This document shows positions 716-21,701 of a DNA stretch of 44,284 nt, in pieces. Origin of the DNA: a virus (lineage: Duplodnaviria > Caudoviricetes); IMG/VR virus record IMGVR_UViG_3300029290_000003, positions 1 through 44,284 of that record. The stretch is one strand, 5' to 3'. The notes beneath the pieces are model-generated. The model saw nothing but the letters and a program-made list of their open reading frames with translations, was not told the DNA's origin and did not search any database. The position numbers and the translations under genes were made by a program. Position 1 is the stretch's first letter. Each line of letters starts with the position of its first letter.

Positions 716-1171
716 TTATTTTTCTTCTTTTATAATTTTAGTAAAAGCATCTGACTTGAAATAATTAATGATCATCTCTCCATCATCCCCTGTAGAAGAT
801 GATACTTTGAGGGGTTCTTCATAAGTAAACTTAAAATCTGGAGGAATAAATTTTGAGATTGGTGGAAGCTTTGCCTCACCTCCTGTTGTGATTCTTTCAA
901 TAAAACCCGCAAGCCAAAGAATATATTCATCTTTATTTTTATATTTTGGCATCAGGCTCATGTCTAACTTTATGGCACATTCTTCTAATGGCTTGGTTAA
1001 GCATTCTTCAAAATCTATAAAATTATATTTAAGTTTAAACTTGGTTCCTTTAATTTCGTTACGGATTGCACCAACTAAATGATTTAAGTTCTCTGCTGAG
1101 CTTTCTGAAAATAAATTTTTGTCCTCAATTTTTTTATACACATTCTCAGCGATGATTAAATATTGTGGCAT
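716..1171 (-). CDS. hypothetical protein, paralog of 1..306
   Basis: ORF with GGGGAG RBS; similar to 1..306 plus a C-terminal extension. Confidence 0.85.
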   Translation of the reverse strand: MPQYLIIAENVYKKIEDKNLFSESSAENLNHLVGAIRNEIKGTKFKLKYNFIDFEECLTKPLEECAIKLDMSLMPKYKNKDEYILWLAGFIERITTGGEAKLPPISKFIPPDFKFTYEEPLKVSSSTGDDGEMIINYFKSDAFTKIIKEEK

Positions 1172-1364
1172 CTCTATTTTCTCCCTTTTATAGTTAAGCT
1201 ACTCACTCAGCCTTTTAAGGAAGTATGATAGATATCATGTTTTCTAATGTAATTGTTGTACTACCAATTGTAATTAATGTGTTTTTGTGAAAACTGCAAG
1301 CATAACCATCCGAAAAAATTCAGAATAATGCAAAATAAGTCTCATTTTATGGATGGAAACTACT

Positions 1365-1790
1365 TTAACCAAAAAATATTTTTAGTTCATCCAAAGTTGG
1401 AAGTTGATTATAAGATTCATCAGCCGCAATTGTATTGGCCCAATTTGACTTTGAAACAATGCAAAAGTTAAGTTTTTTTAGTACAGTAAGCTCTTGATCT
1501 AAAAGACCTAAAGGGATCCACATAAACTGAGTGCTACCTACTAAGTTTGGTACTGGTGATCCACATTGGCTGCAAAATGAAGATGTGAAGCCTGTTTCTT
1601 TTTTATAAGTGCGGACAAGTTCTAAACCTGACAACCACTCAAATTTATCTTTGCTTACTAATGTTGCTGCATTTGCCCCCGTTCCGGTTTGTTTACGGCA
1701 AAGACTACAGTGGCAGTGATAGACTGTGTTTATTTCATTAGTAATTGAAAATTTAACTTCATTGCATAGACAAGAACCCACGTGACTCAT
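1365..1790 (-). CDS. GFA / CENP-V family Zn-binding protein
   Basis: GSCLC, CHCSLCRK.TG and FCSQCGS motifs; start moved to MSHVGSCLC. Confidence 0.9.
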   Translation of the reverse strand: MSHVGSCLCNEVKFSITNEINTVYHCHCSLCRKQTGTGANAATLVSKDKFEWLSGLELVRTYKKETGFTSSFCSQCGSPVPNLVGSTQFMWIPLGLLDQELTVLKKLNFCIVSKSNWANTIAADESYNQLPTLDELKIFFG

Positions 1791-2112
1791 CTCAAGCATC
1801 CTTAAAAATAATATTGAATATAGCATTAGGCATAAAAGGGTTAAATTTTACATTATATTTTTTAATGGATATGTCTTCTAAGAAGTGCAAATAAATATAA
1901 GGAATTGCTAGCGCTGAGGCTTGGCAGAATGTATTTATAACGTTTAATATGAATTTTGACATATAAATTGAATATAAAAATGCTGTGATGTGTTTATCTT
2001 GGATGCGACTTCAAAGCTTACATGATTAATCAACTCTATCAGCATAATAGTTTTTTATAAATATAATCAATATTTTAGATTTAATTGGTGTTTATTTGGT
2101 GTTTTGGCCAAC

Positions 2113-2121
2113 TTATCCACA
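2113..2121 (+). promoter_or_regulatory. perfect DnaA box upstream of the SRAP gene
   Basis: TTATCCACA exact match. Confidence 0.45.
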
Positions 2122-2218
2122 AGTGATAAAACAACAAAACCGACTAGATTTTTTGATCTGTCGGCCCCTTCTGAGTAGTAATATAAAGTTAGTCGGAAAT
2201 AATAACAATGGTAGATAT

Positions 2219-2854
2219 ATGTGCGCCAATTACGAACCTATAAGTAAAGATCGTGTTCACCTTCTAGATCTCTTCGAACCAACTTTCGACTATAAAGCCG
2301 ATGTTTATCCGGGTTATGACTGCCCTCTTATTTTTTCTAAAGACGGGAAAATTGAATGGCGTCAAGTTAAGTTTGGCATAATCCCACCTTGGAACCATGA
2401 TCTTAAATTCTCAAAATATACTTATAATGCTAGAACTGAAACGGTAGATAAAAAACCGAGCTTTCGACATGCTTGGGCCAAAAGTCAATTTGCCTTGATA
2501 CCAGTCGAAAAGATTTATGAACCGCGATATGTAAATGGGAAAGCAGAACGCTGGGGAATTTTTAGAGAAGATGGTTTGCCTTTTACAGTGGCTGCTATTT
2601 ACGACTCAACCGTTATTGATGGTCAACAAGTTCGATCTATGTCGATGCTGACCATAAATGCTGATAATCACCCTTTCATGAGCCAGTTCCATAAGCCTGA
2701 AGATGAAAAGAGATCGATTATTGTCATTCCAGAAAAGTATCGAGAAGATTGGTTGAACTGTAATAAAGAAGATGCTCATCAATTTTTCTTTGAAATGCCC
2801 CTAGGTGAATTTACTGCTGACTATTTCCCAAAGCAAAGAAAAACAGTCAATTAG
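2219..2854 (+). CDS. SOS response-associated peptidase (SRAP/YedK/HMCES family)
   Basis: start corrected to MCANY so the catalytic Cys is residue 2; YNARTET, IYEP and FHKPEDEKR motifs. Confidence 0.93.
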   Translation: MCANYEPISKDRVHLLDLFEPTFDYKADVYPGYDCPLIFSKDGKIEWRQVKFGIIPPWNHDLKFSKYTYNARTETVDKKPSFRHAWAKSQFALIPVEKIYEPRYVNGKAERWGIFREDGLPFTVAAIYDSTVIDGQQVRSMSMLTINADNHPFMSQFHKPEDEKRSIIVIPEKYREDWLNCNKEDAHQFFFEMPLGEFTADYFPKQRKTVN

Positions 2855-2914
2855 TACCGTTCACTTTCCGACCAAATGCACTAGTGACCGCGACAAGTTA
2901 TGACTAGTACTTAT

Positions 2915-2923
2915 TTATCCACA
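2915..2923 (+). promoter_or_regulatory. perfect DnaA box upstream of umuC
   Basis: TTATCCACA exact match. Confidence 0.45.
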
Positions 2924-2968
2924 GTTTTTTAAATTTGAATTTAAGCAGGCTCAGCTCTACCATTTATT

Positions 2969-2989
2969 TTGAATTTGTAACGTTTTCAA
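2969..2989 (+). promoter_or_regulatory. Acinetobacter UmuDAb-type SOS operator
   Basis: TTGAATTTGTAACGTTTTCAA, 18/21 match to the UmuDAb palindrome as I recall it (TTGAAAATGTAACTTTTTCAA); 7 bp before the umuC ATG. Confidence 0.75.
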
Positions 2990-2996
2990 GATAACC

Positions 2997-4289
2997 ATGA
3001 GAGAGCGAATCTTTGCACTTGTCGATGTGAATAACTGCTATGTCAGTTGTGAGAGGTTTTTTAAACCTGAGTTGAATAACCGCCCCGTTATTGTGCTTTC
3101 GAATAACGACGGCTGTGCAGTAGCTCGAAGTCAAGAAGCTAAGGACCTTGGAATTAAGATGGGGGTTCCTCTCTTCCAGATTAGAGACATTGTAGAAAGA
3201 CATAATGTTGTGGTTCTATCAAGTAACTACAGTGTCTATGCAGAGATGAGCAAAAGGTTTATGGCTATCTTGCGAACCTATGTTACTGAGAGCGAACAAG
3301 AAGTCTATTCAATTGATGAGTGTTTTCTAGACCTAACAGCTTATTTAAATAATTATGATCTAACGACGTATTGCCATGGCATGAAGGAAAGAATTTGGAA
3401 ATGGATTGGCCTTCCAGTATGTATTGGGATTGGCAGATCAAAGACTGAGGCAAAGATAGCAAATCACATTGCAAAGAAGAACAAAGCATTTGATGGTGTG
3501 TGTAATTTAGTTGCGATGGATCCTTGCAATAAAGAGTCATATCTATCATCGATCGATGTAAGTGAAGTTTGGGGCGTTGGTAGGCAGCATACTAAAAAGC
3601 TAAATGGTATGGGCATAAACACTGTTTTAGATTTAGCTATGGCCTGCCCTGAATATATTCAGCAACAGTTTTCTGTGGTCATGAAGAGAACCGTTTATGA
3701 GCTGCAAGGCATATCCTGCATTGAGATTGAGCATTCCCCACCAAGTAAAAAGCAGATCATTTCATCTAAATCATTTGGTCAGAAAGTTACTGAACTCATA
3801 GATCTACAAGAAGCTGTTTCACTCTACATGCAAAATGCTGTGGTCCGGTTAAGAAAAGATAGATTGCTATGCGGCTGCATTATTGTTTTCGCTCAATCAA
3901 ATCCATTCGACAAGCACAAACCTTTCTTTAATAGATCACAGTCACTTCCGGTTAGTGTGCCGACCGACAATGTTTTGAAAATGGTGCAGATAGCCACTTT
4001 TTTAATGAGACATCTATATGCGCGAGGAATTGAATATAAAAAATGTGGGGTGATTTTGACAGGCTTGGAGCCTAAAGATACCTTTACCTATGATCTTTTG
4101 ACAGACTGGGATAAGGTCGAAAAGGACGAGAACTTGATGACTACTATCGAACAAGTAGTCGAGAAGTTTGGAAAGCATAAAATTGCTGTGGGTAGTTGTA
4201 GATTGCCTAATCGTGGTTGGTCCATGACCAGAGATAAACTAACGCAGAATTATTTTAGTTGGGAAGGCTTACCTAAGATTAATAAGTAA
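2997..4289 (+). CDS. umuC: Y-family DNA polymerase V catalytic subunit
   Basis: ALVDVNNCYVSCE, VLSNNDGC and YSIDECFLD motifs; C-terminal WSMTRDKLT. Confidence 0.95.
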   Translation: MRERIFALVDVNNCYVSCERFFKPELNNRPVIVLSNNDGCAVARSQEAKDLGIKMGVPLFQIRDIVERHNVVVLSSNYSVYAEMSKRFMAILRTYVTESEQEVYSIDECFLDLTAYLNNYDLTTYCHGMKERIWKWIGLPVCIGIGRSKTEAKIANHIAKKNKAFDGVCNLVAMDPCNKESYLSSIDVSEVWGVGRQHTKKLNGMGINTVLDLAMACPEYIQQQFSVVMKRTVYELQGISCIEIEHSPPSKKQIISSKSFGQKVTELIDLQEAVSLYMQNAVVRLRKDRLLCGCIIVFAQSNPFDKHKPFFNRSQSLPVSVPTDNVLKMVQIATFLMRHLYARGIEYKKCGVILTGLEPKDTFTYDLLTDWDKVEKDENLMTTIEQVVEKFGKHKIAVGSCRLPNRGWSMTRDKLTQNYFSWEGLPKINK

Positions 4290-5589: not shown

Positions 5590-6840
5590 TTAGCTCTCTT
5601 TTAGTCGAGCATGATAGAACAATGTACCGAAATACACGCCCCATGATAAATATGTGATAGACCATGCGAAGTTTTTAGAGAAAACGACCATGAATGCAAC
5701 TTGAAGGCACATTAAAAAACAAAATGCCCAGTAAGGATTTTTCAAATCTTTTAAGTAATAAAAGAATGAACTAAAGAGAGTACCAAAGATAACTGCAATA
5801 TAAGCAAGGAAGAACAACAGCCCATACTCTGTATAAGCAGACAAGGCATTGTGAGCATATCCACCCACGTTTTCTGAGCCGACACCGCCTTGGTTTAAAT
5901 AGGCGCCAAAGTCACCAAGTATTGGGTTTTTCTGGATTGTGTCTATTGCAAAATGCTCACGATCATTACGTTGCTGCCAAGACTCATCCTTAGCTGCATT
6001 AAAGATTGCAAACTGCCGAGAATCGCCTAATTCAGCATAATTAGCCACAGCAGCAAAGGCAACAATAGTAAAAATGCTGGCAGCGACAATAAAACTAGAT
6101 TTAATGCGAATAGATCTAATCAAGTGATACGCCATAACAATCAAGAAAAATGCAACTAATTCTGATCGAGCACCAAGCATAAATAAAATAATTAGCAAGG
6201 CTACTGTATGGACTAAATTGGTAATGTTATTTTTAGAGAATGCGATCACAAATGTAGCTACTACCAGTAAATTCCTCGCAATACCCTGATAACTTGCCAA
6301 CTCATCAGTATCTACCAGAACCCCTTTTACAAACGGCAACATGTAGCTATCTTCAGTTATAAAATACCAAACGGAGTATCCTAAAAATAAATAAACGAAG
6401 AATAGACATATTTTTCTCATTCTATCGATATTATATTCCGGTATGTAAAACCCCATGCAATAAAATGCAATCCAAAACAAAATAGTCAGGATTGATTGAT
6501 ATACAGCGAGCGAAACCGAATCATAAAAAGATGCTGCAACTGTGCTAACAATCGCATTAATTAAAGCCAAAAATGCAAGAATTGACAAATATTTAGAGTA
6601 CTTAAACGAATATTTAATCGTAGTCTTACTAGTAATAGCTAATAATACAAAAGCGACTGTTGAAACAATACCGAAGTAGCCACCTAAAAATGGCGGAATG
6701 AATTTATATAAAAGTAATACGTTGTATAAGATATAACCCACAAAAAGCAGTAGGAACATAAGCGAAGAAATGTTCTTATTTATCTCAACAAGTGATATTT
6801 TTGAAGATAAGGAAGCCATACTTGTTACTAAACTAAACAA
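5590..6840 (-). CDS. Wzy / O-antigen ligase family polytopic membrane protein (moron)
   Basis: about 10-12 TM segments; LGARSE motif and a periplasmic loop ending NPILG...YAHNALSAYTEYGL; start may be the ATG at 6819. Confidence 0.85.
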   Translation of the reverse strand: MFSLVTSMASLSSKISLVEINKNISSLMFLLLFVGYILYNVLLLYKFIPPFLGGYFGIVSTVAFVLLAITSKTTIKYSFKYSKYLSILAFLALINAIVSTVAASFYDSVSLAVYQSILTILFWIAFYCMGFYIPEYNIDRMRKICLFFVYLFLGYSVWYFITEDSYMLPFVKGVLVDTDELASYQGIARNLLVVATFVIAFSKNNITNLVHTVALLIILFMLGARSELVAFFLIVMAYHLIRSIRIKSSFIVAASIFTIVAFAAVANYAELGDSRQFAIFNAAKDESWQQRNDREHFAIDTIQKNPILGDFGAYLNQGGVGSENVGGYAHNALSAYTEYGLLFFLAYIAVIFGTLFSSFFYYLKDLKNPYWAFCFLMCLQVAFMVVFSKNFAWSITYLSWGVYFGTLFYHARLKES

Positions 6841-17229: not shown

Positions 17230-17913
17230 CTAGGGTTCTTTGAATCCTTCGACATTAAAGGTAAATTGCTTTGTTCCTTCTTGAAAGAAACTAGGCTCAA
17301 CTATAAGTTTCTTTGATACTTTCAGTTTTTCGATAAGCTTCTTGGCAGTTGCTTCACTCTGTACAAATAAGACATCTGTATCATGCGTATCACTGCCGAC
17401 CATTGTTACAGCTTGAATATTTCCACTATCAAATTTGAAATTTACTTTACAACCATCAAAGCTTGAACAAATGAATTGGCCCTTTGTGATATTAATAATT
17501 AAATCAGTCCCACTTTTACCCTTTCGAACCGTCAAGACAAGGTTTGATCCCCCATTGTAAGGAAACTCAAAATCAGCTTGGTTAGTACTTATAGTACGTG
17601 TTGATCTTGTTTCAGTTCCTCGCATCTCATCCTTAGAAACGTTATTAAACCAATTTTCAGGTTTTGCGGGTTCAGATGCCAAACTTGATGCTTGAGCGCT
17701 ATCTTGTGTATCGCCTTGTTTGACTGCTTTGTTTGGTTCTGCTATTTTCCCAATCACAGCAAATAAAATCATAATCCCAAAAAACCAAAGGACTATTTTT
17801 AAAAACAGGCCCATCTTCTTAACCTTGGCACCACACACAGGACAAGCATCTGCTTTATCACTAACTGGTGCACCGCATTCCTTACATGGTTTTATAGCCA
17901 TTTCATCACCCAA
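17230..17913 (-). CDS. zinc-ribbon + TM + periplasmic-domain protein (moron)
   Basis: CKECG...ACPVCG followed by one TM helix. Confidence 0.8.
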   Translation of the reverse strand: MGDEMAIKPCKECGAPVSDKADACPVCGAKVKKMGLFLKIVLWFFGIMILFAVIGKIAEPNKAVKQGDTQDSAQASSLASEPAKPENWFNNVSKDEMRGTETRSTRTISTNQADFEFPYNGGSNLVLTVRKGKSGTDLIINITKGQFICSSFDGCKVNFKFDSGNIQAVTMVGSDTHDTDVLFVQSEATAKKLIEKLKVSKKLIVEPSFFQEGTKQFTFNVEGFKEP

Positions 17914-17941: not shown

Positions 17942-18373
17942 TTAATTTATTTTTGGTTTGCCAATTAATTTATTGACAGCATCCAATACTTTACCCTCAG
18001 TGCTTCGCCATTTATTAAGTGCTAAAGGGTTTTGCTCCCAATCTACTTTTGCAATTTGTTCTCCATTTTCATCATAAAGATCTAATTGGATAACTGATGT
18101 ATATACGGCCATATCCCATGATCTTTGTGCTGAGTAAGTTAATCTATTTTGACATTCAATTGGCTTGGTATCTGAATAGAATTTAGATTTGATCCCATTT
18201 TCAATAAATGCTCTTTCTAAATCATTCTCAAATGATGGAATAGTTACTTTGCTGTTACGTTCAATACAAACTTCACGGAGTGTGTTTAGTTTTGCACTAT
18301 CTAATGCCTTCACGGGTTTACCAGCACAACCAACAAGCCCTAGCATCAGCCCTAATAAAATAATATTTTTCAT
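17942..18373 (-). CDS. lipoprotein, Sbal_3080-like (moron)
   Basis: lipobox LVG-C; VCIERN and LTYSAQRSWDMAVY motifs. Confidence 0.75.
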   Translation of the reverse strand: MKNIILLGLMLGLVGCAGKPVKALDSAKLNTLREVCIERNSKVTIPSFENDLERAFIENGIKSKFYSDTKPIECQNRLTYSAQRSWDMAVYTSVIQLDLYDENGEQIAKVDWEQNPLALNKWRSTEGKVLDAVNKLIGKPKIN

Positions 18374-19700: not shown

Positions 19701-20063
19701 TTAGCGGTCTAAAAACCAATTGGCATCAAAGCCACGGGAAAATAGCTTCGTGTCTTGCTCATAGTTATTGATGCTTGGATTTAGAACATAACTTTGTGGT
19801 TCTAAGGCTTTGCGGATCGCCTCTCTAGCTTCATAAGCTCGCTTTTGCTGTGTGTCGTAGACAATAATTTGGTACATGACATGATCAACATGTGCAGGAC
19901 AATCTAGGTTATTTTCAGCATTACCACCTACTGTTTGCCACACTGCATAAGGTGTAGGTGTATCTAAAGGCGCCAAGTCCTCATAAACACGTAAATCAGT
20001 GCCTAAAATAGCCTTGACCGCAGCATCAGCATTGAGGGTTCGATAAATTGGAAGAAAGCTCAT
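19701..20063 (-). CDS. tail terminator protein (DUF3168-like)
   Basis: RVYEDLAP..TPTPYAVWQ motif; synteny. Confidence 0.8.
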   Translation of the reverse strand: MSFLPIYRTLNADAAVKAILGTDLRVYEDLAPLDTPTPYAVWQTVGGNAENNLDCPAHVDHVMYQIIVYDTQQKRAYEAREAIRKALEPQSYVLNPSINNYEQDTKLFSRGFDANWFLDR

Positions 20064-20521
20064 AGTTTTGCTATTTCCTTGTCTAGTTCAGCACTAAAAG
20101 ACTGACTGAAAGTATCTGTGACCTTTTGAACATTGTTTGCTAATGCTGGGCGCATAAATGGAACTGCAGGAACACCTGAACGGCCATACTCGATCCATCT
20201 CCAATGCCGCGTGTCACCTCCACTTGTAGGTTTAGGAGTTGGGTTAGAGAATGAAGCACCACCATCAACACCAACGCGCATCAATACTTGGCTTTTATCC
20301 TTCATTCTGCCCGCACTGACTTTAATATTCTTAAAGATCTTCGCTGCTGTTTCAGGATCATCAATAGCTTGGGCATTCTGTCTTGCTGCATCACGGACAA
20401 CATTCATTGCTTTGCGAGCAGCGCGCATAGCGGCATTTCTGACTTGACGTTTATTGGTCAATGCATTCATCTTTCGCAAGACTTCATCTAGCCCTTCGAT
20501 TTTTACGTCTACATCAGCCAT
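20060..20521 (-). CDS. HK97 gp10-like tail completion protein
   Basis: IEGLDE N-terminus and WRWIEYG...PFMRPA. Confidence 0.88.
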   Translation of the reverse strand: MADVDVKIEGLDEVLRKMNALTNKRQVRNAAMRAARKAMNVVRDAARQNAQAIDDPETAAKIFKNIKVSAGRMKDKSQVLMRVGVDGGASFSNPTPKPTSGGDTRHWRWIEYGRSGVPAVPFMRPALANNVQKVTDTFSQSFSAELDKEIAKL

Positions 20522-20538: not shown

Positions 20539-20560
20539 AAAAAAACCGCCTTTAGGCGGT
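20539..20560 (-). terminator. terminator closing the head-tail moron
   Basis: AACCGCC-TAAA-GGCGGTT plus U tract. Confidence 0.8.
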
Positions 20561-20850
20561 TAAGTTAAAACTAGTTGGGATTCTCGATATTTGGCATGAA
20601 CTTTAGTTTCTATTAAACCTTTAGTGCTGAAATCGGTTTCTTTTGACAGTTCTTCAATTTCGAAGCGATAACAGGCTCTAGGGGTTTTAACCACAATATA
20701 CTTATCAGAATCAGACTCAAAGAAATCACCTTCCTGTCCACATGGGTAGAAAGTAAAATCAATGTTTTTATCAGAGAGCTGGACACTATCTTTAATATGT
20801 ATTTCGACTAGATTGTCATTCCAGCCTAGAAAGCATTTACTCATATCCAA
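20560..20850 (-). CDS. hypothetical protein (moron)
   Basis: ORF co-oriented with and adjacent to 20857..21261. Confidence 0.6.
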   Translation of the reverse strand: MDMSKCFLGWNDNLVEIHIKDSVQLSDKNIDFTFYPCGQEGDFFESDSDKYIVVKTPRACYRFEIEELSKETDFSTKGLIETKVHAKYRESQLVLT

Positions 20851-20856
20851 TCCCTA

Positions 20857-21261
20857 TTAAACTTTTGCAGCAATTGCTAATTCACGGAGGGTCACGCCTG
20901 TATGAGTGTTCGCCATCTGTGCTACCCAATATCGATGATTAAACCACTTGCCAAGCTCCCAACAATAAACATCATCAATCGCTTTAGTTTTTGTAGCTTC
21001 TTCTACTTTGGCTTTACCGCCAAATCTAGCAACAATATCATCAGCCTCAACTACATATGCTTGGCCTTTGTCTCCAACTTGAAGACATAATCTCGATTTA
21101 ATTCCGTCCTCATATTGAACAAGCCAGTTATCTGAATCGCTTTCACTTCTTTGTTCAAATACAACAGTGCCCTTTTCACCTGATGGATGCTGTATTATAT
21201 CGCCTTCAAATATTTGACAATTAAGGTAATCACTATATGGGGACTTCTTCTTATTGCTCAT
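20857..21261 (-). CDS. hypothetical protein, YopX-like IFEGDII motif (moron)
   Basis: GAGG RBS; D..NCQIFEGDII motif. Confidence 0.7.
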   Translation of the reverse strand: MSNKKKSPYSDYLNCQIFEGDIIQHPSGEKGTVVFEQRSESDSDNWLVQYEDGIKSRLCLQVGDKGQAYVVEADDIVARFGGKAKVEEATKTKAIDDVYCWELGKWFNHRYWVAQMANTHTGVTLRELAIAAKV

Positions 21262-21339
21262 AATTGCACCTCTGCAATACCTGTTTATGGTTGTGGCAAC
21301 TGTTCAGGTAAAACAGAGTTCGGTGATCAGCCTAGCCAC
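21262..21339 (-). ncRNA. candidate structured cis-regulatory leader RNA
   Basis: TATAAT at 21351-21346; GTGGC/GCCAC closing stem enclosing two hairpins; TACCTG/CAGGTA pseudoknot; RBS hairpin. Confidence 0.5.
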
Positions 21340-21353
21340 TCAAATATTATACA

Positions 21354-21701
21354 CTATTTCGATTTTTCAAGCCCCTGCCCAAGCAAGAAAGTACAGTAAG
21401 TGTAAGAGTCTTCACTATCATCTAAGGCTTGGCTTTTAATTGAGAAAATCCGACCTTTCCAAATCACCTGCATCTTGGTCGTTATGTCTTCTCGATAGCG
21501 GATTTTCATACGAGCCACTACTTCGGATTGGTCGGCTTGTGCTGCAATTAAATCTTTAGCGGATAATGGTGTGACTTTTGCCCAAAGCTTTTTGTACTCA
21601 GACCAACCACCTTCGATTGGGAAGCCGTCTTCATCACGGCCCGGCTCAGTGTATGCTTGAATAACCACTCTGTTTCGAAGTTCGGGTGCTAAATCTGCCA
21701 T
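21354..21701 (-). CDS. head closure / head-tail adaptor (SPP1 gp16-like)
   Basis: LRNRVVIQ...WAKVTPLSAK...IRYREDIT. Confidence 0.88.
   Translation of the reverse strand: MADLAPELRNRVVIQAYTEPGRDEDGFPIEGGWSEYKKLWAKVTPLSAKDLIAAQADQSEVVARMKIRYREDITTKMQVIWKGRIFSIKSQALDDSEDSYTYCTFLLGQGLEKSK

Follow-up and report, generated by a model that had tools for sequence, protein, structure and literature searches.

The question raised by this locus is what kind of RNA heads a small two-gene insert in the head-tail region of a provirus, and in what manner it might control the genes behind it. The window (the whole stretch of DNA analysed, 44,284 nucleotides) is a complete provirus record carrying an HK97-like head-tail block. 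On its minus strand the head-closure gene (21354..21701; PF05521, phrog_25) and the HK97-gp10-like, or neck, gene (20060..20521; PF04883, phrog_5) are separated by an insert of 832 nt, measured from the stop of the former (21354) to the start of the latter (20521). The insert holds, on the same strand, ORF1 (20857..21261; 134 aa) and ORF2 (20560..20850; 94-96 aa, likely ATG at 20844), and is closed by an intrinsic-terminator-like hairpin with a T run (20539..20561, hairpin 20561-20544). The initial annotation had placed two unknown genes between head-closure and tail-completion genes, and the identities of the flanks, together with the lack of an assigned function for either ORF, bear this out. 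Among 69 loci with a related head-closure gene, 5 had no gp10 gene in view, leaving 64 informative junctions, and in 57 of these the site is empty, the two connector genes being less than 60 nt (mostly 7-8) apart. In four of the 64 the leader is present, its cargo being either that of the window or different, and three have inserts lacking the leader, one of which (L684) consists of ORF2 alone at the same site. With its own promoter-like -10 and terminator-like hairpin, and its absence from relatives, the insert is, as judged by sequence comparison, a moron, and its leader travels with the first gene. The morons of HK97/HK022-type phages are likewise composed of their own -10, cargo and a terminator between head-tail genes; however, the insert in the window differs from these in having a structured leader, which is reused with other cargo both here and at other sites.

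ORF1 is made up of two small domains that are also found apart (phrog_19209, residues 1-74; phrog_29122, residues 75-134). Its first 74 residues are met with singly or in fusion with other domains, and in 10 of 22 relatives this part matches YopX, though below the cut-off. It has 29 relatives, the named ones all being hypothetical proteins from Acinetobacter, the genus to which the named relatives of the window proteins belong; no Pfam match at cut-off and no solved relative was found for it, and its atlas matches reached only 0.80. In RNA run X1, only an ORF1 relative was seen, at a small share. ORF2 is an orphan with one relative and no family. A defence-system reading of the cargo was considered and set aside, as PADLOC matched 2 of 64 proteins, neither of them from the window. 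Elsewhere in the window, a 416-aa ORF with an O-antigen-ligase (Wzy_C) domain (5590-6840, minus strand), lying between tail and lysis genes, is a possible surface-modifying moron, and two ORFs preceding a long 873-aa tail gene (17230-17913 and 17942-18373, minus strand), one of which has an N-terminal zinc ribbon, possibly form a second moron, one lacking a leader of the int-alpA type described below. Near the left end there are also SRAP peptidase and UmuC/DinB-like polymerase genes (2096-4289, plus strand) and a GFA-domain gene (1365-1826, minus strand).

All of the described elements of the leader lie at 21351-21259 on the minus strand. A -10-like hexamer, TATAAT (21346..21351), is situated directly 3' of the head-closure stop codon. 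The perfect hexamer reported in the initial annotation is indeed there, but as a promoter it is weaker than was described, as no canonical -35 is present at 16-18 nt from TATAAT and a consensus promoter scan omits the site; in 103 representatives of the leader, a TAnnnT ending 11-16 nt before the junction C was matched 55 times, versus 0-4 matches per position elsewhere. The three-way junction (21293..21339), with its conserved CUAG...CGAA core, is formed by P1 (21339-21335 with 21297-21293), followed by UA; by P2, a GG/CC closing the 7-nt loop L2 (21330-21324) and followed by GAA; and by P3 (21316-21312 with 21304-21300). In L2, position 2 is a U and positions 3-6 read GAUC, a palindrome, and the loop is predicted to be self-kissing, whereas the anti-Shine-Dalgarno-like loop of P3, viz. 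L3 (21305..21311), has, on match scores and duplex energies, two alternative partners. The proximal one, site A (21278..21283), is an exact 6-nt complement of L3 and a predicted decoy, and the other, site B (21271-21267), overlaps both the ribosome-binding site and the hairpin P4 (21264..21277; P4 region -4.1 kcal/mol), which carries the Shine-Dalgarno sequence GAGG in its loop and is followed by the AUG of ORF1 at 21261. The junction, the L3 complement, the hairpin at the ribosome-binding site and the AUG had all been pointed out previously, and each is present in the sequence. For the window copy the L3:site A duplex, which covaries in relatives, is computed at -8.3 kcal/mol versus -5.4 kcal/mol for the weak L3:site B duplex, full pairing at site B requiring the top of P4 to be open; in the clade of the window, site B has shrunk to the Shine-Dalgarno sequence alone and P4 is firmer, with its stem changing in step among close relatives when inspected by eye. 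The single-sequence fold is not beyond chance (z of -0.8 to -1.6 against shuffles), and the three-way junction, at -7.6 kcal/mol, lies 5 kcal/mol above the minimum predicted (-12.6 kcal/mol); hence, support for the structure has to be sought in the relatives.

Such relatives are numerous. Pattern scans gave 481 parsed matches in 544 loci, of which 308 were distinct, and as the patterns fixed much of the core, its invariance among these matches is partly by construction. Searching named phages at the DNA level returned 11 records, and in the three inspected, viz. Psychrobacter Y8A, Acinetobacter AbP2 and Cronobacter ES2, the element is directly 5' of a gene with an HNH/AP2 endonuclease annotation or domain; E. 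coli genomes gave no DNA match. Viral holders are estimated at hundreds of contigs (about 550), and in model searches of two samples, each of 151 genomes inclusive of its centre genome, a known holder, the leader was found in 29 genomes of one genus and in 11 of one class. Of 63 genome matches from a pattern scan, some lack the structure and are chance-like. In 49 aligned copies, 85.5% of the cells are paired compared with 60.7% in shuffles and 31-48% in slid controls, and 215 cells are changed on both sides versus 77 in shuffles; however, the 49 rows were pre-filtered for P1 and P3 and these counts therefore lean towards structure. Loci gathered on the core alone show P1 by eye in nearly all of the rows listed, and in Cronobacter phage ES2 both L3 and its partner have changed with the pairing kept. 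The comparison of homologs that had been proposed as a check on the fold has thus found P1 and P3 to covary in these 49 copies, and the folded RNA at the start of the moron is, on comparative grounds, confirmed as real and conserved.

If this RNA belongs to a catalogued motif, as the initial annotation had surmised, then Rfam would be expected to hold it. The window gave no match in Rfam either at cut-off or at E 10, and the link to a family is therefore made entirely via relatives, 16 of 20 of which pass the gathering cut-off (35.8 bits) of RF02996 (int-alpA), comprising all 11 of those whose loop is GACG and 5 of the 9 that have a 7-nt loop. One of these members, L600, has the same L2 loop as the window. 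Of 20 loci nearer to the window, one passes RF02996 and five score 25-35 bits, and three of these five, which share 73-74 of 82 leader bases with the window, score 25-30 bits. A model of our own (R1) was built from the window copy and relatives with 7-nt loops; presented with 13 loci that pass the RF02996 cut-off, it recovers 12, of both loop kinds, and it gives the window copy, which was part of its seed, 43.6 bits, and finds no second copy within the window. Like the int-alpA model, the family of the window has a three-way junction, CUAG and CGAAA strands, a CC-rich L3 and a U-rich linker, and the purine-rich 3' end of the model matches site A; the model ends there, however, and lacks P4, site B and the start codon. 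In the window copy itself the three-way junction is present, as are the junction strands CUAG and CGAA and the G closing P1 (GAAC compared with GAAAA in the consensus), and homology is continuous through cut-off-passing members. The neighbourhood of integrase and alpA genes, expected from the family name alone, is not found here, the window copy lying between head-tail connector genes, and many cut-off-passing members also precede genes other than these. As the cut-off fails while structure, core and continuous homology agree, the leader in the window is very probably a divergent member of the int-alpA family, and taken alone it is an ordinary divergent member that would extend the family below the Rfam cut-off; the surmise of a catalogued phage RNA motif has in this way been upheld.

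The int-alpA family is catalogued yet unexplained, and it is common. It reportedly originates from a survey of 224 motifs. Rfam types RF02996 (71 positions) as Gene; sRNA and states no function for it. In the literature searched no function for int-alpA was found: the term is absent from the main text of PMC5737381, the supplement of which may say more, and it occurs in a table of Rfam hits in the available part of PMC12370729 and as a gene-order label in that of PMC13612085. The searched parts of a survey of 10,006 phage motifs (PMC10690425) gave no match, and this survey may hold the motif elsewhere.

The genes behind the leader are diverse. Of 143 representative cargo proteins (from 155 clusters, 12 of which did not contribute, their proteins being truncated, mis-started, chance-like or previously scanned), 51 are of nuclease or homing-endonuclease type, 9 of antirepressor type, 8 are replication proteins, 5 are of other kinds and 70 have no assignment; PHROGs adds endonucleases and replication proteins among those without a domain name, and in the GACG-type cargo 2 of 33 proteins have a Pfam match. 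As the cargo proteins are unrelated, feedback by the cargo protein itself appears unlikely, and neither an Rfam aptamer match nor a single cargo pathway, as expected of a metabolite riboswitch, was found. Direct evidence of expression comes from a homologous cassette (L042), the leader of which shares 73 of 82 bases with that of the window. In three runs from two studies, containing L042 at over 99% identity, sense-strand depth is ~2-10 ahead of the leader and 150-250 after it; the coverage extends over two ORFs, of which the second is a relative of the first domain of ORF1, and falls at about 599. These reads support a local promoter and an mRNA leader in the L042 cassette, rather than an exact start site, and they show this homologous cassette to be transcribed from its own leader while the flanking phage genes are nearly silent; the transcription so observed is that of the homolog and not of the window locus. 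Further, read ends cluster inside L2, 11-12 nt inside the start of P1 (5 molecules in each of two runs). Were the RNA a ribozyme, or else a mainly trans-acting small RNA, then such a cluster, the Rfam typing as an sRNA gene, and those copies (L012, L096, L123 and L548) that lack sites A and B or have a terminator-like hairpin could be accounted for. However, the read ends, being 11-12 nt inside the expected 5' end, are explicable by library preparation, the depth runs through both ORFs, no Rfam ribozyme is matched, and the start codon is located 33-47 nt after the junction in 254 of the 292 copies with an ORF (range searched, 18-74), so that this explanation is regarded as very improbable. The likeness of CUGAUCA/GAA to a hammerhead core, already dismissed in the initial annotation, is likewise without substance, as no Rfam match is found, CUGANGA/GAAA are absent as junction linkers, and CUGAUCA is a variable hairpin loop, one of about 30 versions of L2 (33, a few being chance). 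Of the three options originally offered, viz. a switch, a protein-binding site or a ribozyme, the switch fits best, and the ribozyme is without support. As separate observations, copies with the 5' junction and without sites A and B (L012 at 1198-1305, L096, L123, L548 and L455), some having a terminator-like hairpin behind them, may have decayed or may act in trans, and L3 in L012 and site A in the L007-type leader are complementary to each other.

The features that point to a switch are the two partners of L3. The pseudoknot between L3 and site A that had been proposed earlier is retained; however, the second partner, at the ribosome-binding site, was then missed. In 105 representatives (250 of the 308 distinct sequences were kept on start distance and loop length and thinned to <72% similarity), the best L3 match scores 15.7 versus 11.0 +/- 0.2 with swapped loops, and when the best site is masked a second match remains at 13.0 versus 10.2 +/- 0.2 (highest of 200 swaps, 10.7). 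As the swapped loops share the CC-rich bias, the match is not merely a matter of anti-Shine-Dalgarno composition. In 93 of the 105, a distance of 4-11 nt separates the end of the 3' L3 site from the start codon. The result recurs in a separate set of 13 GACG-type representatives, with 13.4 versus 10.6 +/- 0.6 (highest of 300 swaps, 12.5). The hairpin P4 around site B scores 10.9 versus 7.5 +/- 0.2, with at least 4 pairs in 98 of 118 representatives, and is by itself of moderate stability (median -3.95 kcal/mol). Site A is the stronger partner of L3 in 73 of the 118 and site B in 30, and site A is 13-16 nt from the junction in 81. Linker length is unrelated to P3 length (rho 0.08), and a negative link between linker and P1 lengths was discarded as an artefact of P1 extending into the linker. 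Since one loop cannot hold A and B together, two states follow by inference, and control of translation by two alternative L3 pairings is considered likely. The covariation, the two L3 sites, the transcription of L042 and the empty sites together lend support to the original proposal that a structured leader acts in cis on a moron of two genes.

What would move L3 from one site to the other is suggested by L2, the motif of which was correctly read at the outset, although its self-complementary centre went unremarked. When the 7-nt loop is left free in the scans, position 2 of L2 is U, and 94 of 95 distinct sequences have either GC or AU at positions 4-5. When every other dinucleotide was looked for at positions 4-5, the whole viral collection yielded 4 loci, versus about 550 estimated holders; one of these is chance-like and three are real-looking single-change variants that break the GC/AU rule. 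Four loop backgrounds (GUA-UC, GUC-UC, CUU-AA and CUC-AA) exist in both GC and AU forms that differ in those two bases alone. A cis partner of positions 4-5 was not found among the P1, P3-proximal, linker and ribosome-binding-site columns (maximum 0.14 bits). In copies with a tetraloop, which were first found by model searches, the loop is GACG in 53 of 61 loci when the tetraloop is left free, one other member has GAUG, and the seven non-members comprise two chance-like and five GCAC-loop hits. The latter (L625, L637, L658, L660 and L663; around 1170-1240, minus strand), rejected from the family as they share CUAG...CGAAA but have no P3, show two tandem GCAC-loop hairpins before the Shine-Dalgarno sequence, with an ORF start that is acidic and of low complexity, and occur in high-GC viral contigs. 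A third loop design, from a metagenome scan in which 18 of 26 loci pass the P1/P3 filter (of the eight failing, six are chance-like and two are GACG loops with a P1 mismatch), has a 4-nt palindrome in 6 of 11 distinct loops (chance 0.18 each, p 0.006) and none in the other 5, or in 4 of 9 with related loops merged (p 0.06), and is thus only suggestive. The loop has otherwise been kept self-complementary through compensating changes, as expected of a self-kissing loop, although loops often switch as whole blocks between lineages and the independent events are far fewer than the sequences. A DNA-level operator or methylation site was rejected, as the L2 word alternates between palindromic and non-palindromic 4-mers and self-complementarity is conserved just at its centre. 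Since adjacent bases cannot form Watson-Crick pairs with each other, the simplest reading of these changes is that L2 pairs with a second copy of the leader, and as the positions flanking 4-5 are often mismatched, this kiss may consist of only two pairs. According to the available part of PMC7357161, GACG loops of Moloney virus RNA form a homodimer by two C-G pairs; the same loop of the Moloney murine leukaemia/sarcoma virus leader (PDB 1F5U) is found in one branch of the present family. However, that system serves retroviral genome packaging and not bacterial translation, there is no homology, and the window has a 7-nt GAUC loop.

Two other explanations of L2 need to be weighed at this point. 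If the leader were a monomeric switch, with L3 toggling between A and B, and its trigger were a small ligand or a protein, from host or phage, that recognizes the junction and L2, then the near invariance of the CUAG/CGAA core and the U at L2 position 2, with the tRNA-like closing pairs C-A, C-C and U-A, would find a reason. The 7-nt YUNR loop resembles a U-turn, and some of the loops are similar to anticodon loops for Ala, Ile or Met. However, a single binding partner would need to recognize loops of three sizes, of the GC, AU and GACG types, and yet refuse single-change intermediates, the cargo has no common domain or pathway and the hosts, judging by record titles, belong to several phyla, and the resemblance of the UA/GAA core to a loop-E-type structural module would require no ligand; this explanation is considered unlikely. 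The other is an untriggered damper or folding timer, in which translation would proceed briefly with L3 on A until the RNA refolds to B and P4, L2 being only an internal tertiary contact or a protection of the 5' end. Such a device would need no partner, it agrees with the synthesis of A before B and with the moderate stability of P4, and we regard it as improbable, since L2 positions 4-5 have no cis partner among the columns examined, three self-complementary loop designs are left without explanation, and refolding from the stronger to the weaker pairing needs an extra source of energy.

A trigger by dimerization through L2 is therefore the reading that we marginally favour, and should a dimer form, it would quite probably be the OFF state. 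The complete chain of events, put forward tentatively as something short of an even prospect, is that of a protein-free translational switch which is turned off when two copies kiss via L2. On a lone or nascent message, L3 would pair with site A, which is made first and is stronger, leaving a modest hairpin at the ribosome-binding site, and the gene would be ON. At high local concentration, L2-L2 kissing would join two leaders, each L3 would move to site B, probably that of its partner, and the ribosome site would be locked (OFF). The output of any gene behind the leader would in this manner be capped, e.g. during prophage replication or read-through of the late operon, and the scheme would suit the unrelated and often toxic cargo as well as a moron that is replicated and transcribed through during lytic growth. 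For the family in general, the chances appear evenly balanced that int-alpA leaders are RNA-only concentration sensors, viz. portable 80-nt elements that count their transcripts through loop-loop homodimerization and flip a pseudoknot onto or off the ribosome-binding site, so that any phage gene placed behind them would be under dosage feedback without a protein or metabolite.

The polarity of this switch is not fixed by any computed feature, the linker being uninformative and site B being the stronger partner in a minority of copies as noted above. If the same dimer acted with the opposite sign, then a lone RNA would lock the ribosome-binding site by a cis L3-L4 kiss and the dimer would free it, with nucleases and antirepressors made only in lytic growth. 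All of the L2 evidence applies equally to this possibility, which the copies with a stronger site B favour, and a precedent is available: according to the accessible part of PMC2988022, T-even homing endonucleases are restrained to late infection by hairpins at their ribosome-binding sites, which hold back I-TevI, I-TevII, I-TevIII, segB and mobE. However, site A precedes site B in the transcript and in most copies pairs more strongly with L3, its fixed distance from the junction suits a cis pseudoknot, and the homologous cassette is well transcribed while its flanks are nearly silent, as expected of a lysogen gene; hence, the opposite sign is also held to be improbable. The T-even hairpins are alike in restraining selfish nuclease genes, the commonest named cargo here, but in the part of that source available they are single and are bypassed by an internal late promoter, whereas here the -10 is upstream of the fold, and a junction, a decoy and a self-complementary loop are present; they share purpose, not design.

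Pairing of a loop with a hairpin at the ribosome-binding site is a known means of setting translation, as in the L5-L13 kissing loop of the cobalamin riboswitch and the repZ pseudoknot of IncI/IncB plasmids. However, the former is triggered by a metabolite and the latter by an antisense RNA, and the window has no Rfam match to either. Neither the extended two-site design nor the self-complementary loop, nor a bacterial leader serving as an RNA-only concentration sensor, was found in the literature searched, which covered only part of the supplements. If the dimer model is correct, the leader would be a riboregulator for which another copy of the same RNA serves as the ligand; it would explain both the tolerance of phages for toxic selfish nucleases and the swapping of cargo behind one leader, and it could serve as a copy-number-buffering part for synthetic biology with orthogonal loop codes. 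The comparative pattern gives this family a specific and cheap test. Several prophages or genomes, viz. G003 (L549, L554), G007 (L558, L560) and G094, contain the leader two or three times, the L2 types within one being alike or different, and these are useful for cross-talk tests.
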